This document shows, one piece after another, positions 8,963-20,009 of a stretch of DNA of 20,009 bases (its first letter is position 1; the number at the start of each line of letters is the position of its first letter). The notes below the pieces were generated by a model, which saw only the letters and a program-made list of their open reading frames with translations, ran no database searches and had not been told where the DNA came from. The DNA is from a virus. Its lineage: Duplodnaviria > Heunggongvirae > Uroviricota > Caudoviricetes. Both the position numbers and the translations under genes were made by a program. Location: IMG/VR virus record IMGVR_UViG_2617270955_000003; one strand, given 5' to 3'.

Positions 8963-9507
8963 AAACGGGAGCCGAAGCTATCCGGGCGCTGGCCACGCAG
9001 CTCCCGGCGTTTCGTCAGAAACTGAATGAGGGCTGGTATCAGGTGCGCATTGCCGGGCGTGATGCAGGCGAAAACGAATTATCTGCCCGTCTTAATGAGC
9101 CGCTGGCAAATGGTGCCGTGATCCACATCGTGCCGCGTCTGGCGGGAGCTAAAAGTGGCGGTGTGTTTCAGGTGGTGCTGGGGGCGGCGCTGATTGCGGT
9201 GGCATGGTGGAACCCTGTGGGCTGGCTGGGTGCCGCGGCTGTATCGGGCATGTATGCGGCAGGGGCCAGTATGATCCTGGGTGGTGTGGCCCAGATGCTG
9301 GCACCGAAAGCCCGGACGCCCACAGCGACCAGCACGGATAACGGTAAGCAGAACACCTATTTCTCATCACTGGATAACATGGTTGCCCAGGGCAATGTTC
9401 TGCCTGTTCTGTACGGTGAAATGCGCGTGGGGTCTCGTGTGGTTTCTCAGGAGATCAGCACGGCAGATGAAGGGGACGGTGGTCAGGTTGTGGTGATTGG
9501 CCGCTGA
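8860..9507 (+). CDS. I: Tail assembly protein I
   Basis: 215 aa; N-terminus MAATHTLPLASPGMARICLYGDLQRFG and C-terminus ...QNTYFSSLDNMVAQGNVLPVLYGEMRVGSRVVSQEISTADEGDGGQVVVIGR match lambda gpI as recalled. Confidence 0.9.
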   Translation: MAATHTLPLASPGMARICLYGDLQRFGHRIDLRVKTGAEAIRALATQLPAFRQKLNEGWYQVRIAGRDAGENELSARLNEPLANGAVIHIVPRLAGAKSGGVFQVVLGAALIAVAWWNPVGWLGAAAVSGMYAAGASMILGGVAQMLAPKARTPTATSTDNGKQNTYFSSLDNMVAQGNVLPVLYGEMRVGSRVVSQEISTADEGDGGQVVVIGR

Positions 9508-9525
9508 TGCAAAATATTTCATGTG

Positions 9526-9550
9526 AAACCGCCTCCGGGCGGTTTTGTCG
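9526..9550 (+). terminator. Stem-loop plus T-rich tract between I and J
   Basis: AAACCGCC-TCCG-GGCGGTTT followed by TGTCGTTT. Confidence 0.45.
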
Positions 9551-9567
9551 TTTATGGAGCATGACGA

Positions 9568-12500
9568 ATGGGCAAAGGAAGCAGTAAGGGGCATACCCCG
9601 CGCGAAGCGAAGGACAACCTGAAATCCACGCAATTACTGAGTGTGATCGATGCCATCAGCGAAGGGCCGATTGAAGGTCCGGTGGATGGATTAAAAAGCG
9701 TGCTGCTGAACAGTACACCGGTGCTGGACAGTGAGGGGAATACCAACATCTCCGGTGTTACGGTGGTGTTCCGGGCAGGTGAGCAGGAGCAGACACCGCC
9801 GGAGGGATTTGAATCCTCCGGTTCCGAGACGGTGCTGGGTACGGAAGTGAAATACGACACGCCGATCACCCGCACCATCACGTCGGCAAACATCGACCGT
9901 CTGCGCTTTACCTTCGGTGTGCAGGCACTGGTGGAAACCACCTCAAAGGGGGACAGGAATCCATCGGAAGTCCGCCTGCTGGTTCAGATACAACGTAACG
10001 GTGGCTGGGTGACGGAAAAAGACATCACCATTAAGGGTAAAACCACCTCACAGTATCTGGCCTCAGTGGTGGTGGATAACCTGCCGCCGCGCCCGTTTAA
10101 TATCCGGATGCGCAGGATGACGCCGGACAGCACCACAGACCAGCTGCAGAACAAAACGCTCTGGTCGTCATACACCGAAATCATCGATGTGAAACAGTGC
10201 TACCCGAACACGGCACTGGTCGGCGTACAGGTGGACTCGGAGCAGTTCGGCAGCCAGCAGGTGAGTCGTAATTATCATCTTCGCGGGCGCATTCTGCAGG
10301 TGCCGTCGAACTATAACCCGCAGACGCGGCAATACAGCGGTATCTGGGACGGAACGTTTAAGCCGGCATACAGCAACAACATGGCCTGGTGTCTGTGGGA
10401 TATGCTGACCCATCCGCGCTACGGCATGGGAAAACGTCTTGGTGCGGCAGATGTGGATAAATGGGCGCTGTATGTCATCGGCCAGTACTGCGACCAGTCG
10501 GTGCCGGACGGCTTTGGCGGCACGGAGCCGCGCATCACCTGTAATGCGTACCTGACCACACAGCGTAAGGCGTGGGATGTGCTCAGTGATTTCTGCTCGG
10601 CGATGCGCTGTATGCCGGTATGGAACGGGCAGACGCTGACGTTCGTGCAGGACCGGCCGTCGGATAATGTGTGGACCTATAACCGCAGTAATGTGGTGAT
10701 GCCGGATGATGGCGCGCCGTTCCGCTACAGTTTCAGCGCCCTGAAGGACCGCCATAATGCCGTTGAGGTGAACTGGACTGACCCGGATAACGGCTGGGAA
10801 ACGGCAACAGAGCTTGTGGAGGACACGCAGGCCATTGCCCGTTATGGTCGTAATGTCACGAAGATGGATGCCTTTGGCTGTACCAGCCGGGGGCAGGCAC
10901 ACCGCGCCGGGCTGTGGCTGATTAAAACGGAGCTGCTGGAAACGCAGACCGTGGACTTCAGCGTGGGCGCAGAAGGGCTTCGCCATGTACCGGGCGATGT
11001 TATTGAAATCTGCGATGATGACTATGCCGGTATCAGCACCGGTGGTCGTGTGCTGGCGGTGAGCAGCCAGACCCGGACGCTGACGCTCGACCGTGAAATC
11101 ACGCTGCCATCCTCCGGCACCACGCTGATAAGCCTGGTTGACGGAAGTGGCAATCCGGTCAGCGTGCAGGTCCAGTCCGTCACCGACGGCGTGAAGGTGA
11201 AAGTGAGCCGGGTTCCTGACGGCGTTGCAGAATACAGCGTGTGGGGGCTGAAGTTGCCGACGTTGCGCCAGCGCCTGTTCCGCTGTGTGAGTATCCGTGA
11301 GAACGACGACGGCACGTATGCCATCACCGCCGTGCAGCATGTACCGGAAAAAGAAGCCATCGTGGATAACGGGGCGCACTTTGACGGCGACCAGAGCGGC
11401 ACGGTGAATGGTGTCACGCCGCCAGCGGTGCAGCACCTGGCCGCAGAAGTCACTGCAGACAGCGGGGAATATCAGGTGCTGGCGCGATGGGACACACCGA
11501 AGGTGGTGAAGGGCGTGAGCTTCCTGCTCCGTCTGACCGTAACAGCGGACGACGGCAGTGAGCGGCTGGTCAGCACGGCCCGGACGACGGAAACCACATA
11601 CCGCTTCAGGCAACTGGCGCTGGGGCGTTACACGCTGACGGTCCGGGCGGTAAATGCGTGGGGGCAGCAGGGCGATCCGGCATCGGTATCGTTCCGGATT
11701 GCGGCACCGGCAGCGCCTGTCACTATTGAACTGATACCAGGGTATTTTCAGATAACAGCGGTCCCGAAACTGGCTGTATATGACCCGACGGTGCAGTTTG
11801 AGTTCTGGTTCTCGGAAAAGCGGATTATCGATATCAGGCAGGTTGAAACCAGCGCGCGTTATCTTGGTACGGCGCTGTACTGGATAGCCGCCAGTAGCAA
11901 TATTAAGCCGGGTTATGATTATTACTTTTATATCCGCAGCGTGAACACCGTTGGTAAATCGGCATTTGTGGAGGCCGTTGGTCGGGCGAGCGATGATGCG
12001 GAAGGTTATCTGAATTTTTATAAAGGGTTGATCAATAAAACGCATCTCGGCAAGGAACTGCTGGAAAACTTTGAGCTGACGGAAGATAACGCCAGCAAAC
12101 TGGAGGAGTTTTCGAAAGAGTGGAAGGACGCCAACGATAAATGGAATGCCATGTGGGGCGTCAAAATTGAGCAGACCAAAGACGGCAAACATTATGTCGC
12201 GGGGCTTGGCCTCAGCATGGAGGATACGGAGGAAGGCAAACTGAGCCAGTTCCTGGTTGCCGCTAACCGTATCGCGTTTATTGACCCGGCAAACGGGAAT
12301 GAAACGCCGATGTTTGTGGCGCAGGGCAACCAGATATTCATGAACGACGTGTTCCTGAAGCGCCTGACGGCCCCCACCATTACCAGCGGCGGTAATCCTC
12401 CGGCATTTTCCCTGACACCGGACGGGCGGCTGACGGCGAAAAATGCCGATATCAGCGGTAACGTGAATGCGAACTCCGGGACGCTCAACAACGTCACGAT

Positions 12501-12963
12501 TAACGAGAACTGCCGGGTTCTGGGAAAACTGTCCGCGAACCAGATTGAAGGCGATCTCGTTAAAACAGTGGGCAAAGCTTTCCCCCGTGACTCCCGGGCA
12601 CCGGAGCGGTGGCCATCAGGGACCATTACCGTCAGGGTTTATGACGATCAGCCGTTTGACCGGCAAATTGTTATTCCGGCTGTGGCATTCAGTGGCGCTA
12701 AGCATGAGAGAGAGCATACTGATATTTACTCCTCATGCCGTCTGATAGTGCGGAAAAACGGTGCTGAAATTTATAACCGTACCGCGCTGGATAATACGCT
12801 GATTTACAGTGGCGTTATTGATATGCCTGCCGGTCACGGTCACATGACGCTGGAGTTTTCGGTGTCAGCATGGCTGGTAAATGGCTGGTATCCCACAGCA
12901 AGTATCAGCGATTTGCTGGTTGTTGTGATGAAGAAAGCCACTGCAGGCATCACGATTAGCTGA
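9568..12963 (+). CDS. J: Central tail fibre / host specificity protein J, with divergent C-terminal receptor-binding region
   Basis: 1131 aa; GGAG RBS 8 nt upstream; N-terminal ~1000 aa match lambda gpJ as recalled, with fibronectin-III-like repeats; last ~145 aa are homologous to but clearly different from lambda. Confidence 0.95.
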
Positions 12964-12982
12964 ATTTTATAACCCAGATACG

Positions 12983-13007
12983 GGCACCAGAAATGGTGCC
13001 TTTTTTA
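12983..13007 (+). terminator. Intrinsic terminator after J
   Basis: GGCACC-AGAAAT-GGTGCC hairpin followed by TTTTTTATT. Confidence 0.6.
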
Positions 13008-13030
13008 TTGCAGAAAAGCGAGAGGTAATT

Positions 13031-13630
13031 ATGCGTAAATTATGTGCTGTTATTCTATCCGCAGTAGTCTGGCTGGTTGCCGCTGGTACGCCAGCGAGCG
13101 CAGCAGAGCATCAGTCCACACTAAGCGCCGGGTATCTTCAGACCCATACTGATATGCCAGGCAGTGATGACCTGAAGGGCATTAACGTGAAATACCGTTA
13201 TGAATTTACGGACACGCTGGGGCTGGTGACGTCATTCAGTTATGCCAATGCCAAAGATGAGCAAAAAACGCATTACAGCGATACCCGCTGGCATGAAGAT
13301 TCAGTGCGTAACCGCTGGTTCAGCATGATGGCGGGGCCATCTGTACGCGTGAATGAATGGTTCAGTGCTTATGCGATGGCAGGTGTGGCTTACAGCCGTG
13401 TTTCGACGTTCTCCGGGGATTATCTCCGCGTAACTGACAACAAGGGGAAAACGCACGATGTGCTGACCGGAAGTGATGACGATCGCCACAGCAACACGTC
13501 TCTGGCGTGGGGAGCTGGCGTGCAGTTTAACCCGACCGAATCCGTGGCCATTGATATTGCTTATGAAGGCTCCGGCAGTGGCGACTGGCGCACTGACGGT
13601 TTCATCGTGGGTGTCGGTTATAAGTTCTGA
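13031..13630 (+). CDS. lom: Lom outer membrane protein (Ail/OmpX/PagC family)
   Basis: 199 aa; signal peptide MRKLCAVILSAVVWLVAAGTPASA; beta-barrel OMP signature with C-terminal ...GFIVGVGYKF; GAGAGG RBS; same position as lambda lom. Confidence 0.95.
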   Translation: MRKLCAVILSAVVWLVAAGTPASAAEHQSTLSAGYLQTHTDMPGSDDLKGINVKYRYEFTDTLGLVTSFSYANAKDEQKTHYSDTRWHEDSVRNRWFSMMAGPSVRVNEWFSAYAMAGVAYSRVSTFSGDYLRVTDNKGKTHDVLTGSDDDRHSNTSLAWGAGVQFNPTESVAIDIAYEGSGSGDWRTDGFIVGVGYKF

Positions 13631-13657
13631 TTAGCCAGGTAACACAGTGTTATGACA

Positions 13658-13683
13658 GCCCGCCGGTTCAGGCGGGCTTTTTT
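13658..13683 (+). terminator. Intrinsic terminator after lom
   Basis: GCCCGCC-GGTTCA-GGCGGGC hairpin followed by TTTTTT; a corresponding hairpin follows lom in lambda as I recall it. Confidence 0.65.
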
Positions 13684-13686
13684 GTG

Positions 13687-14397
13687 CACAGAAAACCCCC
13701 AGCTAGGCTGGGGGTTCCGGAAAGCTTTCAGCTTTAAGCCAGTTATTAAAACCCCTTTTGATTTGTTAAAACACCTTGCGGTCTGGCAACTGCAAGTGTC
13801 AAACAAGAAATCAAAAGGGGGTCCCAATGGGGAACGAAAAGAGCTTAGCGCACACCCGATGGAACTGTAAATATCACATAGTTTTTGCGCCAAAATACCG
13901 AAGACAGGTGTTCTACAGAGAGAAGCGTAGAGCAATAGGCAGTATTTTGAGAAAGCTGTGTGAGTGGAAAAGTGTACGGATTCTGGAAGCTGAATGCTGT
14001 GCAGATCATATCCATATGCTTGTGGAGATCCCGCCCAAAATGAGCGTATCCGGCTTTATGGGATATCTGAAAGGGAAAAGCAGTCTGATGCTTTACGAGC
14101 AGTTTGGTGATTTGAAATTCAAATACAGGAACAGGGAGTTCTGGTGCAGAGGGTACTACGTCGATACGGTGGGTAAGAACACGGCGAAGATACAGGATTA
14201 CATAAAGCACCAGCTTGAAGAGGATAAAATGGGAGAGCAGTTATCGATTCCCTATCCGGGCAGCCCGTTTACGGGCCGTAAGTAACGAAGTTGGATGCAA
14301 ATGTCAGATCGTGTGCGCCTGTTAGGGCGCGGCTGGTAAGAGAGCCTTATAGGCGCATTTGAAAAACCTCCGGCTATGCCGGAGGATATTTATTGTG
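13687..14397 (+). mobile_element. IS200-family insertion sequence (IS200/IS605 family), about 0.7 kb, boundaries approximate
   Basis: Contains an IS200-type TnpA gene; left end carries an 8-bp-stem hairpin (CCCCCAGC-TAG-GCTGGGGG, 13696..13714); element sits where lambda has only about 10 bp between the lom terminator and the stf start; length fits IS200 (about 707 bp). Confidence 0.7.
13827..14285 (+). CDS. tnpA: IS200-family transposase TnpA (HUH single-strand transposase)
   Basis: 152 aa from ATG 13827 (MGNEKSLAHTRWNCKYHIVFAPKYRR...); HUH motif in ...CADHIHMLVEIPP...; the track start at 13776 is an upstream in-frame extension. Confidence 0.9.
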   Translation: MGNEKSLAHTRWNCKYHIVFAPKYRRQVFYREKRRAIGSILRKLCEWKSVRILEAECCADHIHMLVEIPPKMSVSGFMGYLKGKSSLMLYEQFGDLKFKYRNREFWCRGYYVDTVGKNTAKIQDYIKHQLEEDKMGEQLSIPYPGSPFTGRK

Positions 14398-14405
14398 GAG
14401 TGGAT

Positions 14406-16784
14406 ATGGCAGCAGTAAAAATCTCAGGTGTGCTGAAAGATGGTGCGGGAAAACCAATACAGAACTGCACTATTCAACTGAAGGCAAAGCGTAACAGCAC
14501 CACGGTACTGGTGAACACGGTGGCTTCTGAAAATCCGGATGAAGCCGGACGTTACAGCATGGATGTTGAGCATGGTCAGTACAGCGTCACCCTGCTGGTT
14601 GAAGGTTTTCCGCCTTCACATGCCGGGACCATTACCGTCTATGAAGGTTCCAGACCAGGTACGCTGAATGATTTTCTCGGTGCCATGACGGAGGATGATG
14701 TCCGACCGGAGGCACTGCGCCGCTTTGAGCAGATGGTGGAAGAAGCGGCACGCAACGCTGAAGCCGCCTCTCAGAGCGCAGCGGCGGCAAAGAAATCCGA
14801 AACTGCAGCGGCATCATCGAAGAACGCGGCGAAAACCTCAGAAACGAATGCAGCTAACAGCGCACAGGCGGCAGCGACCTCAAAGACTGCATCGGCAAAC
14901 TCCGCGACAGCAGCCAAAAAATCAGAAACCAACGCGAAAAATAGCGAGACAGCCGCAAAGACGAGCGAAACCAACGCAAAGTCCAGCCAGACGGCAGCGA
15001 AAACCAGCGAAACGAATGCCAAAGCCAGTGAAACTGCGGCAAAAAACAGCCAGGTTGCAGCAGCCCAAAGCGAGAGCGCGGCAGCCGGTTCTGCGACTTC
15101 AGCAGCTGGATCAGCAACTGCTGCGGCTAACAGCCGGAAAGCTGCGAAGACGAGTGAAACTAACGCAAAGTCCAGCCAGACGGCAGCGAAGACCAGCGAA
15201 ACGAATGCCAAAGCCAGCGAAACTGCGGCGAAAAACAGTCAGGATGCAGCAGCCCAAAGCGAGAGTGCTGCAGCTGGTTCTGCAAGCGCGGCGGCTGCTT
15301 CTGCCACTGCATCAGCCAACAGTCAAAAAGCAGCAAAAACCAGTGAAACCAATGCAAAGACAAGCGAGACTGCAGCGGCGAACTCGGCGAAAGCATCCGC
15401 TGCAAGCCAGACCGCTGCAAAAGCAAGTGAAGACGCAGCCAGAGAGTATGCAAGCCAGGCAGCAGATCCGTATAAATATGTCTTACAGCCGCTGCCTGAT
15501 GTGTGGATACCGTTTAACGATTCACTGGATATGATTACGGGCTTTTCGCCATCATATAAAAAGATTGTTATTGGTGACGACGAAATAACGATGCCTGGCG
15601 ACAAGATTGTTAAGTTTAAACGTGCATCGAAAGCAACCTATATTAACAAATCTGGTGTGCTGACAGAGGCTGCCATTGATGAGCCACGATTTGAACGTGA
15701 TGGCCTGCTTATTGAGGGGCAAAGAACTAATCTTCTGCTTAATTCAACAAATCCATCTAAATGGAATAAGTCAGGCAATCTGGAACTCACAGAAATATCC
15801 ACGGATTCTTTTAATTTTACTTATGGGAGATTTACTGTAAAAGATACTCTTATTGGTCAGACAAGTGCTATTAATATCGTAACGATTTCTGGCAGTAAAG
15901 GGTTTGATGTCACAGGTGATGAAAAATATGTGACCATTTCATGCCGTGTAAGAAGTGATGTTGAAAATATAAGGTGTCGTTTAAGATTTGAACACCATGA
16001 TGGTTATACTTACACTTTTTTGGGAGATGCTTACCTCAATTTATCAACACTTGTAATTGATAAAACTGGTACTGCTGCAGACCGTATTATTGCAAAGGCT
16101 GTAAAAGATGAGGTTACTGGTTGGATTTTCTATCAGGCTACAATTAATGCACTAGATACAGAGAGCATGATTGGTGCGATGGTTCAATACGCTCCTGTAA
16201 AAGGTTCAGGTACAGCATCTGGAGACTATCTGGATATCGCAACTCCACAAGTGGAAGGTGGATCAAGTGCTTCGTCATTTATTGTAACTGATATAACTGC
16301 AAGCACTCGCGCAAGCGATATGGTGACAGTCCCAATCAAGAATAACCTTTATAATCTTCCTTTTACGGTTCTTTGTGAGGTACATAAGAACTGGTATAAA
16401 ACGCCAAATGCAGCACCGCGTGTTTTTGATACCGGCGGTCATCAAACCGGAGCGGCTATTATTCTTGGCTTCGGTCGTTCAACAGATTACGACGGATTTC
16501 CTTATTGTGATATAGGTTTGGCTAACAGACGGGTAAACGAAAACGCATCGCTTGAAAAAATGGTTATGGGGATGCGTGTAAAGTCAGATCAGTCTACGTG
16601 CTCAGTAAGTAACGGGCGTATATCCAGCGAAAAGAAAGCCACATGGTCCTATATTCAGAACTCCGCAATTATCCGTATTGGAGGCCAGACTACAGCCGGG
16701 TTGCGTCATTTATTTGGTCATGTCAGGAATTTCAGAATATGGCACAAGGCATTGACTGATGCTCAGATGGGGGAGTCAATCTAA
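14406..16784 (+). CDS. stf: Side tail fibre protein (lambda Stf-like N-terminus, repetitive Ala/Ser/Thr shaft, divergent AT-rich C-terminal domain)
   Basis: ATG 14406 gives MAAVKISGVLKDGAGKPIQNCTIQLKAKRNSTT..., matching the lambda Stf N-terminus as recalled; the track start at 14376 falls in the IS200 end region. Confidence 0.9.
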   Translation: MAAVKISGVLKDGAGKPIQNCTIQLKAKRNSTTVLVNTVASENPDEAGRYSMDVEHGQYSVTLLVEGFPPSHAGTITVYEGSRPGTLNDFLGAMTEDDVRPEALRRFEQMVEEAARNAEAASQSAAAAKKSETAAASSKNAAKTSETNAANSAQAAATSKTASANSATAAKKSETNAKNSETAAKTSETNAKSSQTAAKTSETNAKASETAAKNSQVAAAQSESAAAGSATSAAGSATAAANSRKAAKTSETNAKSSQTAAKTSETNAKASETAAKNSQDAAAQSESAAAGSASAAAASATASANSQKAAKTSETNAKTSETAAANSAKASAASQTAAKASEDAAREYASQAADPYKYVLQPLPDVWIPFNDSLDMITGFSPSYKKIVIGDDEITMPGDKIVKFKRASKATYINKSGVLTEAAIDEPRFERDGLLIEGQRTNLLLNSTNPSKWNKSGNLELTEISTDSFNFTYGRFTVKDTLIGQTSAINIVTISGSKGFDVTGDEKYVTISCRVRSDVENIRCRLRFEHHDGYTYTFLGDAYLNLSTLVIDKTGTAADRIIAKAVKDEVTGWIFYQATINALDTESMIGAMVQYAPVKGSGTASGDYLDIATPQVEGGSSASSFIVTDITASTRASDMVTVPIKNNLYNLPFTVLCEVHKNWYKTPNAAPRVFDTGGHQTGAAIILGFGRSTDYDGFPYCDIGLANRRVNENASLEKMVMGMRVKSDQSTCSVSNGRISSEKKATWSYIQNSAIIRIGGQTTAGLRHLFGHVRNFRIWHKALTDAQMGESI
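14953..15283 (+). repeat. Tandem in-frame duplication of about 189 bp (63 codons) in the stf shaft
   Basis: Segments 14953..15094 and 15142..15283 are near-identical at offset 189 bp (...GTCCAGCCAGACGGCAGCGAA.ACCAGCGAAACGAATGCCAAAGCCAG.GAAACTGCGGC...), encoding repeated AAKTSETNAKSSQTAAKTSETNAKASETAAKNSQ. Confidence 0.85.
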
Positions 16785-17065
16785 TGAAAGATTTAACACT
16801 CAAATTTGCAGACAGGGCCGACTTTTCGGCCTTTATGGATAGCATTGGCTATTATGATGACGAGTCGATGCAGGATGATATTCTTATTGACGTGATAGGT
16901 AACGTGTACAAAGAAACCGGAGAACTGACTGAAGATGGCGAACCGGTATGTGTTAAGGAAGATGGATATTATGTAAACGTGCGCATCATTAATGATGCAA
17001 AAAAATCGTCAATATTCGATGAATACGCGGTTGTAGTTGAACATCAACTTCGTGGCTGGATGTGA
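16784..17065 (+). CDS. Hypothetical small acidic protein (93 aa), translationally coupled to stf
   Basis: ATG overlaps the stf stop (TAATG); AT-rich like the stf 3' half; occupies the position where lambda has tfa but does not resemble Tfa. Confidence 0.55.
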   Translation: MKDLTLKFADRADFSAFMDSIGYYDDESMQDDILIDVIGNVYKETGELTEDGEPVCVKEDGYYVNVRIINDAKKSSIFDEYAVVVEHQLRGWM

Positions 17066-17074
17066 GGGAGACAA

Positions 17075-17779
17075 ATGGCTACATCGACAGTAATTCCAGG
17101 AGACATCACCACGTTAAAGGGAGATGTCAGTAAAGCCAAGGAAGATATTTCCTCAATTAACGGAAAAGTATCAACGCTTCAGGCTGATATGACCAGTGCA
17201 AAGCAGGATATCAGCACCAGATACACAAAAACTGAAGTTGATAATAAGCTGAAAAACAAACTGGAAGTGAACGCTCTGGAAAGCGGTCGTTATGGTGGAG
17301 ATTTTTACCCGTTGACTGGCCGTGAAGCGTTTTATTTGTGGGGATTGGGCACGACTACAGCGGCGGCAAACCTTTATCTTAATCCTGACCCCGCAATTTC
17401 GTCTGTGCTGCGGTCAACATCGTCTATCCGCTATAAACATTCAGTAGAGACAATAGATTCAGAGCACGCCGATCTCATTTTCAGGATGCGCCCTGTGTGG
17501 TACAGGTCACAATGCGAAAATGACAGGCGTGACTGGGGATTCTACGGATTGATTGCCGAGGAAGTAGGAGAAATTGCCCCTCAGTTTGTACACTGGCGAC
17601 CAGCTAACGAAGATGATGCACCGGAAGCTATTTCCAGCAATGGCCTTGTTGCCGAAGGTGTAATGTACGAACGTCTGGTTGTTCCACTGATTCACCATAT
17701 CCAGAAGCTGACTGAAAGAGTTGATGAACTTGAGTCAGAATTAAAGTTGTTATCCGTTTCCCGAAGCGATATCGGATAA
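17075..17779 (+). CDS. Tail-fibre-like protein with C-terminal intramolecular-chaperone (peptidase S74-like) domain
   Basis: 234 aa; GGGAG RBS; N-terminal periodic coiled-coil-like segment; C-terminal ...SSIRYKHSVETIDSEHADLIFRMRPVWY...WGFYGLIAEEVGEIAPQFV...NGLVAEGVMYERLVVPLIHHIQKLTERVDELESELK resembles the autoproteolytic chaperone domains of phage fibres and tailspikes. Confidence 0.65.
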   Translation: MATSTVIPGDITTLKGDVSKAKEDISSINGKVSTLQADMTSAKQDISTRYTKTEVDNKLKNKLEVNALESGRYGGDFYPLTGREAFYLWGLGTTTAAANLYLNPDPAISSVLRSTSSIRYKHSVETIDSEHADLIFRMRPVWYRSQCENDRRDWGFYGLIAEEVGEIAPQFVHWRPANEDDAPEAISSNGLVAEGVMYERLVVPLIHHIQKLTERVDELESELKLLSVSRSDIG

Positions 17780-17789
17780 AGGAGGAGTA

Positions 17790-18077
17790 ATGGATATAAG
17801 CCCCTTACTTCATGCACTTTGTGCTGTGGCTGCGCAAACACTGGTTGGTCTTTTTACCGGAAACTGGGCTTACGGAGCGATAGCCGGTTGTACGTTCTTC
17901 ATTGCGCGTGAACACACCCAGGCAGAATATCGCTGGATCGAAATGTTCGGGCATGGCAAGCGAATGAATATGCCGTGGTGGGGCGGTTTTGATCCGCGCG
18001 CGTGGGATGTGACAAGCCTGATGGATTTTGCTGTGCCGGTGGTGGCGTGTCTGCTGATCTGGATGTTGATCCGTTAA
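17790..18077 (+). CDS. Hypothetical small membrane protein (95 aa, 2-3 predicted TM segments)
   Basis: Strong RBS AAGGAGGAG 7 nt upstream; hydrophobic N-terminal and C-terminal segments; last gene before attP. Confidence 0.6.
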   Translation: MDISPLLHALCAVAAQTLVGLFTGNWAYGAIAGCTFFIAREHTQAEYRWIEMFGHGKRMNMPWWGGFDPRAWDVTSLMDFAVPVVACLLIWMLIR

Positions 18078-18084
18078 ATATAAA

Positions 18085-18120
18085 AGCCGCAGTAACTTGC
18101 CATGATAGGATACTGCGGCT
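18085..18120 (+). repeat. Inverted repeat / hairpin downstream of the membrane-protein ORF
   Basis: AGCCGCAGTA ... TACTGCGGCT (10-bp arms, 16-nt loop); no following T-tract, so terminator function is uncertain. Confidence 0.3.
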
Positions 18121-18317
18121 GGCTGGTTAACTTTCGATAGTGCGAGTATTGAATGATTTCCAGCCGTTACTGATTTTATATAACGGCAGTGGAATTATTC
18201 AACACACAGGCAAAACACAGGCAAAACGGAATAAGCTGAGAAAAAAAGCGTGCTTTCCCAATCTGGGGCAAATCACGTCTGAATGACACCTGAAAACAGG
18301 TGGTGGACTCAAGAAGG

Positions 18318-18395
18318 CTTGGAATATTCTTCTTTAATGTTATGTAATTCATTGATTTTTCGTGTACGATTTTAAGACATTTATTCCAAGAAGAA
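18318..18395 (+). promoter_or_regulatory. Candidate integrase arm-type binding sites (P arm): one direct and one inverted CTTGGAATA motif
   Basis: CTTGGAATATTCTTC at 18318..18332 and its inverted relative TTATTCCAAGAAGAA at 18381..18395, upstream of the tRNA-like core. Confidence 0.5.
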
Positions 18396-18429
18396 TTTTT
18401 AACTCTTTGATTTTTCTACTCTGTATCAT

Positions 18430-18491
18430 CGGTCTCGAAAACCGGAGTGGGGGCAACTCCACCGGGGGTTCAAATCCCCCTCTCTCCGCCA
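18430..18491 (+). tRNA. Partial tRNA-Ser(CGA) (serU-like) 3' segment, anticodon stem to CCA; probable att core
   Basis: Anticodon loop CTCGAAA (anticodon CGA), long variable arm, T-arm GGGGG-TTCAAAT-CCCCC, acceptor 3' strand TCTCTCC, discriminator G and CCA at 18489..18491; no matching 5' acceptor/D-arm upstream, so not a complete gene. Confidence 0.75.
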
Positions 18492-18536
18492 AAATTCAAT
18501 CACTTACACATCATTAAGTCAGTGACAAAAATCACA

Positions 18537-18572
18537 CTTGGAATTACTTGGAATATTTTCTTGGAATATTTT
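18537..18572 (+). promoter_or_regulatory. Candidate integrase arm-type binding sites (P' arm): three direct CTTGGAAT(T/A) repeats
   Basis: CTTGGAATTA (18537..18546), CTTGGAATATTTT (18547..18559), CTTGGAATATTTT (18560..18572); they overlap the last about 10 codons of int. Confidence 0.55.
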
Positions 18573-19569
18573 CAGGTAACGGGACATCAAGTGTTGGTGA
18601 AACTTTAACCTTCCTGTCATAGATTAGCACTTGCCCTTCGGTTTTGTGACCAGAGAAAAGTTGCTTATCCCGGCTGCTTCCTTCATAGTCTGAAATTCCT
18701 TTCGCCTTCAGATCATGAAAGGTGAAGTCGGTTAAAATACCTGAAATTTTTCCAGCACGATTTCTTGCATCTACCCACATTTCGTTAAAGCCTTTGTACA
18801 TATATCGGTTGCCGTATTGATTGCTGATCACATAGGCAGATTTTGGTAACTGTTTTGCTTTTTCGATCGCTGCCTGTAATCGTGGACTCCATGCTTTTAT
18901 CTGTTTTTTTCCGGTTTTCCCTTGCTGGATGAATATCCCGTCGTTTCCAATCTGTTCCCATTTCAGCGATAACACATCGGAAACCCTCGCTGCACACAGA
19001 TAGGCAATTTCCATTGCGATAAAAACAGGAAGAGGTGCAACGCTTAATACTGCCTGGTATTCTTTGTCGGTTACATATCGTTCGCGGTTTTTGGCCTTGA
19101 ATTTACTTACACCTGCACATGGGTTAGCCTTCACGTACCCTCGCTCATACCCCCAACTGTAAACACGGGACATACTGCTTTTTTCATGGTTGGCTTGCGT
19201 TTTACTCTGCTCCCCTCTTTTGTCCATGTATCGACGGATGTGTTCTGGTTTTATGGAATCCGCTGGTACCTTACCGAATACGGCAAGCAACTTTTTTTGA
19301 TGTTGCAGATAATCTTTTTGTGTTCTTGGACTAAGGTCACTGTAATAGGCGCTGGCGAGGAATTTTTCCCACAAGCGACCGAATGTCATTGCACGATCGC
19401 GATTATTTACAGTTTCCTCATACTTTTTCCATAAAGCAGCTAAACCATCCTTGATGGCGGTTAGTGTGACAGATTCTCTGGATGTTGGTTTCCATACATA
19501 ACTATATTTATTTGGGTATACATTTGGAGGTAATTTTTCGTGTTCAGGATTTTTCCTTCGTCTTCCCAT
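18544..19569 (-). CDS. int: Tyrosine integrase (lambda Int family)
   Basis: 341 aa; lambda-like arm-binding N-terminus MGRRRKNPEHEKLPPNVY; catalytic-region signatures ...HDLKAKG... and ...GHKTEGQVLIYDRK (candidate Tyr); adjacent to attP; start overlaps the xis-like stop (TGATG). Confidence 0.95.
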   Translation of the reverse strand: MGRRRKNPEHEKLPPNVYPNKYSYVWKPTSRESVTLTAIKDGLAALWKKYEETVNNRDRAMTFGRLWEKFLASAYYSDLSPRTQKDYLQHQKKLLAVFGKVPADSIKPEHIRRYMDKRGEQSKTQANHEKSSMSRVYSWGYERGYVKANPCAGVSKFKAKNRERYVTDKEYQAVLSVAPLPVFIAMEIAYLCAARVSDVLSLKWEQIGNDGIFIQQGKTGKKQIKAWSPRLQAAIEKAKQLPKSAYVISNQYGNRYMYKGFNEMWVDARNRAGKISGILTDFTFHDLKAKGISDYEGSSRDKQLFSGHKTEGQVLIYDRKVKVSPTLDVPLPENIPRKYSK

Positions 19570-19772
19570 CAGATCGCACCAAAATTCGGCTCTACCTCGC
19601 GTGGTGGTAAAGTTTTATTGCAGGTAAATAGATCCCGGCTGACAATCGGTTTGCCACTACGATTGGTATAGAACGGAAGCCCGTTTTCTATTAACCATTT
19701 TCGCTGGTGGCTTGCATATTTGCAGCCCGTTAATATTAGCAATTCATCTTCGGTTAAAAATAAGCTGCTCAT
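19569..19772 (-). CDS. Excisionase-like protein (DUF4224-like small DNA-binding protein)
   Basis: 67 aa, MSSLFLTEDELLILTGCKY...WLIENGLPF...; immediately upstream of and coupled to int, the usual xis position. Confidence 0.7.
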   Translation of the reverse strand: MSSLFLTEDELLILTGCKYASHQRKWLIENGLPFYTNRSGKPIVSRDLFTCNKTLPPREVEPNFGAI

Positions 19773-19789
19773 AGCTATATCTCATAACC

Positions 19790-19815
19790 GCCGCTAACTA
19801 TATACGGTTAGCGGC
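19790..19815 (+). repeat. Perfect 9-bp inverted repeat (GCCGCTAAC-N8-GTTAGCGGC) between the exonuclease stop and the xis-like start
   Basis: Read directly from the sequence; no T-tract on either strand. Confidence 0.5.
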
Positions 19816-19830
19816 AATTAGGGTTGAACA

Positions 19831-20009
19831 TTAAAAATCAGCCTGACTCGGGATCAGTTTTTGCCAGATAGCTGAAACGTATTTTGCCTGGTAACGAGCG
19901 TCATCAAGTGCATTATGGCGCTCACCTTCGAATGGAATAGCCGTTCTGGCATCGAAGTCTATGGCTTTCCCCAGCTCAACGATTGTGCGTACATCGCGAT
20001 CGTTGTAGT
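19831..20009 (-). CDS. DnaQ-like (DEDDh) 3'-5' exonuclease, C-terminal part; 5' end beyond the window
   Basis: Minus-strand frame open from the window edge to the stop at 19831..19833; translation ...DFDARTAIPFEGERHNALDDARYQAKYVSAIWQKL... contains an Exo III-like H-x-A-L-x-D-A motif. Confidence 0.55.
   Translation of the reverse strand, partial: YNDRDVRTIVELGKAIDFDARTAIPFEGERHNALDDARYQAKYVSAIWQKLIPSQADF

Follow-up and report, generated by a model that had tools for sequence, protein, structure and literature searches.

A complete attP unites the two ends of an IS-degraded serU prophage of Escherichia coli ST131

The stretch of DNA analyzed here (20,009 nt; hereafter, the window) joins, as judged from its sequence, both ends of one IS-degraded and well-known prophage of Escherichia coli ST131 through a complete attP, and we conclude with moderate confidence that it lies inside a tandem array at serU, where two prophage copies meet head to tail. 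On the forward strand, the tail genes are followed by lom, an IS200C element, stf, three small ORFs, and a non-coding stretch, after which int and xis lie in the reverse direction (Table 1). The first-pass annotation had described the tail genes, lom, stf, attP, int, and xis as contiguous, with attP unsplit and serU as the integration site, and all three points were borne out: the gene calls follow the map of a circular or vegetative genome and depart from that of a lone integrated prophage, the P arm is that of attR and the P′ arm with int that of attL in the EC958 and TUM1857 strains, and the core corresponds to the 3′ 62 nt of serU.

Table 1. Features of the window, with positions counted from its first nucleotide.
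Feature	Position	Strand	Basis or remark
IS1 (IS1B-like)	1-502	-	502 of 768 bp; remainder left of the window
Major capsid gene, 3′ remnant, HK97-type	503-926	+	~141 codons; 'missing N-terminus' in the PGAP annotation of TUM1857
Head-tail connector, tail shaft, tape measure, and tail tip L, K, I, and J	1003-12963	+	TUM1857/EC958 annotation, Pfam
gpJ	9568-12963	+	
lom (Ail/Lom outer-membrane protein)	13031-13630	+	PF06316 Ail_Lom, E = 1.7e-127, full length
IS200C in the lom-stf spacer	~13687-14388	+	Bounds from alignment to the IS-free noe1104
STnc490 sRNA region of IS200C	13694-13817		Rfam RF01405, 146 bits
IS200C tnpA	13826-14284	+	PF01797; PGAP IS200C tnpA
stf, side tail fiber	14376-16784 (PGAP start 14405)	+	PF08400 phage_tail_N
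93-aa conserved phage ORF	16784-17065	+	phrog_1361, E = 1e-46
234-aa tail-fiber C-terminal module, S74-type chaperone domain	17075-17779	+	PF13884 Peptidase_S74; phrog_3299, phrog_454
95-aa conserved phage ORF, last before attP	17790-18077	+	phrog_1443, E = 9.5e-57
attP P arm	18318-18429	.	Same sequence as attR (phage side) of EC958 and TUM1857
Putative P-arm arm-type repeats, CTTGGAATA	18318-18326 (+), 18382-18390 (-)		Exact matches
Predicted IHF-consensus sites, P arm	18345-18357 and 18400-18412 (-)		Consensus matches to WATCAANNNNTTR
att core	18430-18491	+	3′ 62 nt of serU tRNA-Ser(CGA); alignment of attP, attL, attR, and K-12 attB
attP P′ arm	18492-18570	.	100% identity with attL (phage side); overlaps the int 3′ end
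Putative P′ direct arm-type repeats	18536-18544 (ACTTGGAAT), 18547-18555 (+, CTTGGAATA), 18560-18568 (+, CTTGGAATA)		
int	18544-19569	-	341 aa, lambda-Int-like tyrosine recombinase; PF00589, PF22022, PF14659
xis (excisionase)	19569-19772	-	67 aa, DUF4224; PF13986, E = 3.9e-15; phrog_1266, E = 4.4e-21
ExoVIII-type exonuclease gene, 3′ end	19831-20009	-	Coordinates from EC958 locus L002; continues past the window edge

Positions 1-18491 constitute the attR-side (tail) end of a lambdoid prophage carried at serU by ST131 strains, and positions 18430-20009 the attL-side (int) end of the same prophage, the two ends overlapping by the 62-bp core. Compared with the TUM1857 strain, positions 1-18429 show a single 1-bp indel and otherwise match, and positions 502-18429 agree 100% with EC958; this tail-side stretch terminates in either strain at attR adjoining zinT. 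On the other side, positions 18430-20009 are 100% identical to the attL side (serU, int, xis, and exo) of both strains. The 502-18429 stretch, including the IS200 copy, recurs without change in ~100 chromosomes of ST131 strains that carry the prophage as an ordinary single lysogen, in support of the long chromosomal history that had been proposed for the element. The prophage unit was computed at ~33,015 bp (~33.0 kb) with the IS1 deletion and 41.3 kb when intact. In the literature, we found nothing specific on an excised or tandem state of the ST131 serU prophage.

The window begins within an IS1 element, whose inverted repeat GGTGATGCTGCCAAC (reverse complement) terminates at position 502; the full 768-bp element is present in TUM1857 (locus L001, 11735-12502). 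The first-pass annotation read this as IS1 disrupting the capsid gene, and the truncation is real, but the event was no simple insertion, given IS1 took the place of 9,066 bp present in the intact prophage, comprising the genes for lysis, terminase, portal, and protease as well as most of the capsid gene. The latter is intact in EC958 (1218 nt), and two thirds of it are gone in the window. Because of this loss, the element cannot form particles. The IS1-capsid junction was identified in 2 of 5426 complete genomes, TUM1857 and FCI23, both of which are ordinary single lysogens, an observation that counts against a tandem arrangement. A look-up of the truncated capsid ORF located the same junction in two further assemblies, the only others found, GCA_027086925.1 and GCA_964038035.1, on contigs of chromosome scale (655 kb and 4.72 Mb), which favors the tandem reading; both are 100% identical to positions 1-10926 of the window, a comparison that used a 10-kb flank and ends 7.5 kb short of the attP junction. 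Look-up of a 145-aa ORF unique to the IS1-capsid junction returned no record.

Further along the module, the IS200 element that had been placed upstream of stf is indeed there, as an IS200C copy in the lom-stf spacer. The small ORFs that follow stf, which the first-pass annotation called cargo, are conserved phage ORFs instead, with the 234-aa product recognizable as a tail-fiber module by both its phrog and Pfam matches. In all nine neighborhoods listed for the 95-aa ORF (from 29 contigs), the gene that comes next is zinT, not int.

The attP itself (18318-18570) is complete and reconstituted, and lies at the end of a non-coding stretch (18078-18543). Its P and P′ arms are unrelated to the bacterial flanks, and its core is shared with the bacterial attB. 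Both arms carry putative arm-type sites, recognized by sequence and distinct from the core: four exact copies of CTTGGAATA occur in the window, every one within attP, where 0.14 would be expected and four were reached in 0 of 100 shuffles. The IHF consensus WATCAANNNNTTR has two matches in the whole 20 kb, both predicted sites in the P arm. A longer core of 77 bp (18430-18506) was discarded as a megablast over-extension, with base-by-base identity stopping at 18491, and the PhiR49_2 phage was set aside as a model for attP, given it shares the structural genes and has a different integrase. ARAGORN detected no complete tRNA in the window. A search with a 126-nt exact attP pattern gave one match among metagenome contigs (CYGL01000134.1, 98.9% identical and with another tail fiber), zero in IMG/VR, and zero in the GTDB species representatives; PLSDB held no record across the attP junction, and look-up of a 51-aa ORF unique to this junction found none.

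The core differs from the K-12 attB by two SNPs, with the phage-type G at 18449 and C at 18460 present in attP and attL, and A and T present in attR and attB. This pattern places the integration crossover within 18430-18448, the anticodon stem-loop segment. On sequence grounds, the P arm, G..C core, and P′ arm of the window together are the exact reverse product of that crossover, as Int/Xis gives, and a homologous crossover placed uniformly in the 62 bp would be expected to yield G..C in only ~19/62 of cases. The same two SNPs reduce the longest exact repeat between attL and attR to 31 bp, with the P arm reaching the G variant after just 19 shared bases, so a de Bruijn assembler with k > 31 would presumably need real attP molecules to build this junction.

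The integrase matches lambda Int (1Z1B) by phmmer (E = 1.2e-12), with residues 1-313 aligned to lambda 1-338, including the arm-binding N-terminus, and its Pfam domains are SAM-like, central, and catalytic. Of the R-K-H-R-H-Y catalytic set, R195, K218, H285, H308, and Y317 are present, and these residues and K288 are invariant among 15 aligned homologues (down to 57% identity). The second catalytic arginine (R311 in lambda) is Lys288 in this protein and, given the lysine is found in 15/15 homologues, it is probably a trait of the subfamily and not a lesion. At 341 aa and with a ...YSK C-terminus, the protein also agrees with the homologues. PGAP flags int as frameshifted; we considered a frameshifted and dead Int and rejected it, given the apparent 13-bp duplication is part of the three tandem P′ repeats and the ...RKYSK end is kept in distant homologues. 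From these alignments, Int appears intact and the PGAP label is probably wrong. An identical Int protein adjoins serU in 54/54 contigs, on varied prophage backbones (10 distinct neighborhoods listed).

An unsplit attP of this serU family was found in 11 of 5426 complete genomes, in each case on the chromosome; none was found among plasmid-labelled or PLSDB records. We examined three of these chromosomes: noe1104 contains a homotandem at serU with a period of 41,862 bp, the O157:H16 strain 98-3133 contains a heterotandem at serU, and M15 has the same unsplit-attP order as either a homotandem or a heterotandem. The 29 contigs around the 95-aa ORF and the 54 around int displayed ordinary integrated neighborhoods only, with none in the attP order, which weighs against a tandem array.

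Four explanations had been put forward for the gene order (a tandem double lysogen at serU, capture away from the att site, an episomal defective phage, and an assembly join), and it is the tandem at serU that these genomes support best, with unsplit attP in 11 chromosomes and both a homotandem and a heterotandem among the three examined. In such an array, the layout would be serU/attL, a first copy, attP, a second copy, attR, and zinT. Recombination of attR with attL by Int (with Xis) in the anticodon stem-loop segment of serU would yield the junction seen in the window, and entry of a further copy into a lysogen would always leave the same attP junction between the two. Lacking lysis, terminase, portal, protease, and most of the capsid gene, the left copy could not have arrived as its own virion, which excludes a second infection by the same genotype and calls for an intracellular route of duplication. 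Most likely, then, the array would have formed in the cell, either through Int/Xis excision from one sister chromosome and re-entry into the copy on the other (by Int at attL or attR, or by RecA at any point of the 33-kb homology) or through an unequal Int-mediated exchange of attR with attL between sister chromosomes. We infer both the two-copy chromosome as the source molecule and its route of formation. Chromosomal flanks are absent from the window, and none of its prophage genes is present twice, so from its sequence a tandem array and an excised circle look the same. To the right of attP, only int, xis, and 180 nt of exo are visible and, given an identical Int occurs on many serU backbones, this copy could be a different phage (i.e., a heterotandem).

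The main rival, possible but rather unlikely in our estimation, is an Int/Xis-excised circle of the ~33-kb defective prophage, perhaps replicating from its own origin and assembled as circular, with the window crossing the closure point. The junction would be the same exact attP product, int and xis appear intact, and the related attP on CYGL01000134.1 lies on a contig of 38,890 bp, the size of a phage genome. Among the O157 Sakai prophages, Sp11 and Sp12 may be those at serU. These two had int scored as disrupted and gave no circles; excision and circularization do occur in O157 for defective prophages of the lambdoid type, some of which amplify (PMC2669165). Against a circle, all 11 unsplit attPs in complete assemblies are chromosomal, with none plasmid-labelled or in PLSDB, and high copy number from productive induction is not expected of an element that lacks its lysis and packaging genes. 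We regard as doubtful that the junction is an artefact made in silico, whether by extraction from attL to attR followed by circularizing or rotating, or by a join of the att copies during assembly or scaffolding. An excerpt that opens with the first base of the attL core and stops immediately ahead of the attR core would, once circularized, reproduce the sequence, and no record of the public collections searched combines the attP junction with the IS1 junction. A cut at the other boundary would, however, give A..T, which is not seen, and the 31-bp maximal repeat between attL and attR means that an assembler with k > 31 could not build the junction from attL and attR reads alone. The random or chimeric join suggested earlier is made unlikely by the core SNP pattern, given a random chimera would not hit the crossover segment exactly.

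That the window derives from a genuine phage record (i.e., virion DNA in vegetative order) is very improbable. The gene order is that of a vegetative map, and relatives with the same structural module have been deposited as phages, such as PhiR49_2 (95% identity over 502-18178), but with terminase, portal, protease, lysis, and two thirds of the capsid gene missing, no virions would form without a helper. Moreover, no record in the phage collection covers at least 80% of the window or spans the attP junction, and IMG/VR yielded no exact attP. Least credible of all is the idea that transposition or illegitimate recombination captured the element at a place other than its att site, taking an intact attP with it. 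While IS1 and IS200 are both present in the window, no IS end or foreign DNA occurs at 18078-18543, and both sides of the junction run on as colinear prophage DNA that matches the copy integrated at serU without differences; we reject this proposal because the join is exactly P-core-P′.

A tandem prophage or an excised circle is a known and fairly ordinary state, and most likely neither a new mechanism nor a new kind of element is involved here. Nevertheless, a packaging-dead ST131 prophage in the attP configuration implies that Int/Xis is active now or was so recently. It is an improbable further step that a prophage dead for packaging and lysis is still mobile within the cells of one ST131 sublineage, as an autonomously replicating attP circle or by tandem amplification at serU. 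If true, this would raise the dosage of the remaining genes (lom and the DicB/Rac-like early genes), with serU alternately exposed and occupied. Tandem and excised states alter prophage gene dosage in a major pathogen clone, and they bear on assembly quality control and the prediction of prophage boundaries. The analysis also maps the attP of a widespread family of E. coli phages that integrate at serU, including the core, crossover segment, and predicted arm-type and IHF-type sites, and cautions that the PGAP 'frameshifted' tag on a very common serU integrase is probably wrong.

The element in the window is the same as the ST131 serU prophage of EC958, JJ1886, and others, one of the Phi1-Phi7 prophages described by Forde et al. 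2014 (PMC4134206). It differs in its state, as the EC958/JJ1886-type lysogen is single, measures 41.3 kb, has its att sites split, and lacks the IS1 deletion. Tandem prophages that share one att site have been described in general terms, for instance among the lambdoid prophages of STEC/EPEC (PMC8112680), and tandem entry via the attR of a resident prophage was obtained experimentally with Sp10 next to Rac (PMC2669165). Like these arrays and lambda dilysogens, the window has a P-core-P′ junction between units, with the same integrase specificity and the same locus, and the noe1104 and O157:H16 98-3133 arrays are direct parallels at serU itself. Unlike known tandem arrays, the left copy here is unpackageable owing to the 9-kb IS1 deletion, and the second copy itself is not seen in the window. 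The defective prophage pool of O157 Sakai is similar in that IS-hit and deleted prophages still form attP circles via Int/Xis, with the difference that the circles there were seen as minority PCR products, not as assembled sequence (PMC2669165).

The attP resembles that of lambda in its predicted layout, a complex site of ~250 bp with a core, two arm-type sites in the P arm, three tandem arm-type sites in the P′ arm, and IHF-consensus sites, and in both phages int adjoins attP directly with xis upstream of int. In lambda, the core is 15 bp and attB is intergenic. The element in the window instead targets serU, which encodes a tRNA; its crossover maps to the anticodon stem-loop, and its 62-bp core restores the tRNA 3′ half. 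The recombination proteins differ as well, with an invariant lysine in this Int subfamily in place of R311 of lambda Int and an excisionase of the DUF4224 type, not of the lambda Xis type.

The ORF list, Pfam and PHROG scans, and annotations of identical DNA from complete genomes show that the genes of the window form a single colinear late region of lambdoid type, running along the + strand, and bear out the tail-to-xis gene order described in the first-pass annotation. The small ORFs downstream of stf, which it had labelled as cargo, are instead a 234-aa tail-fibre C-terminal module (Pfam/PHROG) and two conserved phage ORFs of 93 and 95 aa, which are of unknown function and not obvious cargo. 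No complete tRNA was found in the window using ARAGORN. A 674-aa antisense ORF runs through the gpJ gene (10168-12192, -), probably owing to the codon usage of J, and stf contains an imperfect internal direct repeat (14948-15188/15137-15377; 241 nt, 83% identical) that is also present in the relative in noe1104.

Features of the window and their coordinates
Feature	Coordinates	Strand
Partial IS1	1-502	
HK97-type capsid gene, 3′ remnant	503-926	
Connector, tail and tail-tip genes to gpJ	1003-12963	
lom	13031-13630	
IS200C with Rfam STnc490 element	about 13687-14388	
stf	14376/14405-16784	
Three small ORFs	16784-18077	
Non-coding stretch (466 nt)	18078-18543	
int	18544-19569	-
DUF4224 excisionase	19569-19772	-
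ExoVIII-type exonuclease gene, end	19831-20009	-

Using megablast of the window against 5,426 complete E. coli genomes, we found positions 502 to ~18500 unbroken in ~100 chromosomes, essentially of ST131 (EC958, JJ1886, JJ1887, and others), followed in all chromosomes inspected by zinT and not by int. Positions 18430-20009 were 100% identical to a segment 22-40 kb off in the same chromosomes, directly adjoining a complete tRNA-Ser gene and mtfA. The ST131 element is thus an ordinary single serU prophage, with int at one junction with the chromosome and the tail-fibre genes at the other, just as had been anticipated for an integrated prophage, and by sequence comparison the window is a circular permutation of it. 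From one core position to its equivalent, the EC958 unit spans 41,315 bp and that of TUM1857 about 33,015 bp. Positions 1-18429 differ from TUM1857 only by a single G at 13710, in the IS200 5′ region, which is missing in TUM1857 and present in EC958.

The window junction was compared by alignment to the attL and attR sites of EC958 and TUM1857, as well as to the unoccupied K-12 site. The identity block (18430-18491, 62 bp) spans the serU tRNA-Ser(CGA) gene from the anticodon stem through the CCA end, and attL lies beside tRNA-Ser, in agreement with the earlier assignment of the site to serU. The window and both attL copies have G18449 and C18460, whereas both attR copies and the K-12 attB have A and T; these two bases form a pair within the variable-arm stem, which leaves both versions of the tRNA self-consistent. 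This pattern places the crossover at integration within 18430-18448, in the anticodon stem-loop, and makes the window junction (P arm, G..C core, P′ arm) the exact product of that crossover reversed; a homologous crossover falling uniformly within the 62 bp would be expected to give G..C in only ~19/62 cases. The same core type occurs in the internal cores of noe1104 and O157:H16 98-3133, and in that of a metagenome contig. Since the phage-borne 3′ half of serU replaces the bacterial A..T with a compensatory G..C, the predicted tRNA-Ser(CGA) of lysogens would be slightly unlike that of non-lysogens.

Around this core, at attP, lie all four occurrences of CTTGGAATA in the 20 kb of the window (18318+, 18382-, 18547+, 18560+), compared to an expected count of 0.14 (four reached in 0/100 shuffles), with a fifth, near copy at 18536. 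These putative arm-type sites lie two on the P arm and three, in tandem, on the P′ arm. The window matches the IHF consensus at just two places, both in the P arm (18345-18357 and 18400-18412).

The integrase gene, which is very common at serU, is labelled a 'frameshifted' pseudogene by PGAP (window 18519-19569, -) in every genome inspected (EC958, TUM1857, noe1104, M15, and O157:H16). The apparent source of this label is a 13-bp tandem repeat at its extreme 3′ end, ~20 codons past the catalytic Tyr, which forms part of the three arm-type sites on the P′ side. A length of 341 aa is usual among 15 aligned homologues (down to 57% identity), in which R195, K218, H285, H308, and Y317 are invariant; the C-terminal ...YSK is kept in E. 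albertii, Siccibacter, Salmonella, and the unclassified Enterobacteriaceae isolate ESL0689, and reads ...NSK in Klebsiella. The length, the conserved terminus, the invariant residues, and the origin of the repeat argue against a frameshifted pseudogene and make an annotation artefact probable. An identical Int was found beside mtfA at serU in all 54 contigs read, and the ten distinct int neighbourhoods shown include differing immunity and early regions, which is hard to square with a dead enzyme. The 67-aa ORF upstream of int is an excisionase (Pfam, PHROG), and the recombination module as a whole is probably functional.

The rest of the element is damaged. The capsid gene is indeed truncated at IS1, as first reported, though not by simple insertion: in TUM1857, a full 768-bp IS1 stands in place of 9,066 bp of EC958-type prophage. 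The deletion removes iraM, the holin, lysozyme, and Rz genes, iss/bor, an HNH endonuclease gene, both terminase subunits, the portal, the protease, and the first 794 nt of the capsid gene, leaving an element capable of neither cell lysis nor DNA packaging. Only two of the 5,426 complete genomes had the IS1-capsid junction (TUM1857 and FCI23, each a single lysogen), and the truncated capsid ORF led to two more assemblies (contigs of 655 kb and 4.72 Mb), both 100% identical to window 1-10926. IS200, also correctly placed upstream of stf, occupies the lom-stf spacer just past the lom terminator hairpin (13657-13684) and carries at its 5′ end a match to the Hfq-binding sRNA STnc490 (Rfam, 146 bits; 13694-13817, +). 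It is common to the ST131 genomes inspected, where the element sits at serU, and missing from the noe1104 relative; the long chromosomal residence proposed earlier thus stands. Together, these distributions indicate an order of long residence at serU, IS200 insertion, IS1 deletion in a small sublineage, and then the attP configuration. In another isolate (GCA_025584385.1, JAOSEE010000041.1; 2222-4994 of the locus), three genes break up stf of the same prophage, encoding an ISEcp1-like (Pfam) DDE transposase, a class A beta-lactamase, and DUF6016. This arrangement is the one usual for ISEcp1-blaCTX-M-orf477, and it lies here in the chromosome, inside a prophage tail-fibre gene.

The unsplit attP was therefore well observed and well reasoned: a complete attP joins the two ends of the ST131 prophage. 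We consider it very likely that the junction is real, whether site-specific recombination made it from the two ends of the defective prophage in residence or it was retained between two copies. That it was circularised or joined in silico is improbable; attL and attR share an exact repeat of at most 31 bp, from which a short-read assembler given attL and attR reads alone should not have been able to build the junction. Less likely still are a record derived from virions and capture at a foreign site. The main rival is an excised circle assembled as a separate contig, whose sequence would be identical to that of a tandem array across the 20 kb of the window. We regard this as possible but lean, modestly, towards a chromosomal tandem array, since all unsplit attPs of the serU family in finished assemblies are chromosomal and, of the other assemblies found with the IS1 junction, all are contigs on a chromosome scale. 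A 451-nt attP query was covered fully or nearly in 11 of the 5,426 genomes, always on the chromosome, and had no match in PLSDB. In the finished chromosome of noe1104 (NZ_CM192165.1), an intact relative forms a true homotandem, the same attP lying between its copies; the 42-kb locus has one and the same terminase protein at either end, and its head-to-tail overlap is 100% identical (1-448 vs 41863-42310; period 41,862 bp). O157:H16 98-3133 (NZ_CP051001.1) holds a heterotandem, in which a degraded lambdoid prophage with NleG/DUF1076 effector genes (11186-16449 of the locus) ends at a hybrid attP, directly followed by a different prophage with the same int; M15 has the same gene order across attP.

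As the visible copy is unpackageable, a tandem array would need to form inside the cell. This could occur by excision and re-entry into a sister copy, using either Int at attL/attR or RecA across 33 kb of homology, or by an unequal attR x attL exchange by Int. Right of attP, only int, xis, and 180 nt of exo are visible, so the array may possibly be a heterotandem with another serU phage of the same int module.

Tandem prophages, excised circles, and lambda-type attPs in tRNA genes are already well known. By-products of the analysis are a map of attP for the family of serU phages, the case that the 'frameshifted' integrase label is probably spurious, and a packaging-dead ST131 prophage whose recombination module is still probably functional. 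Tandem prophages with a common att are a familiar state (PMC8112680), and Sp10 entered next to Rac via the attR of Rac (PMC2669165). In appearance the serU-family site resembles the lambda-type complex attP, with the same layout of core, arm-type, and IHF-consensus sites. The alignment of Int with lambda Int begins at residue 1; however, where lambda Int has the catalytic Arg311, this integrase subfamily has an invariant Lys, Lys288 (motif FHDLKAKGISD; codon at 18706-18708), which, being present in 15/15 homologues, is a trait of the subfamily.
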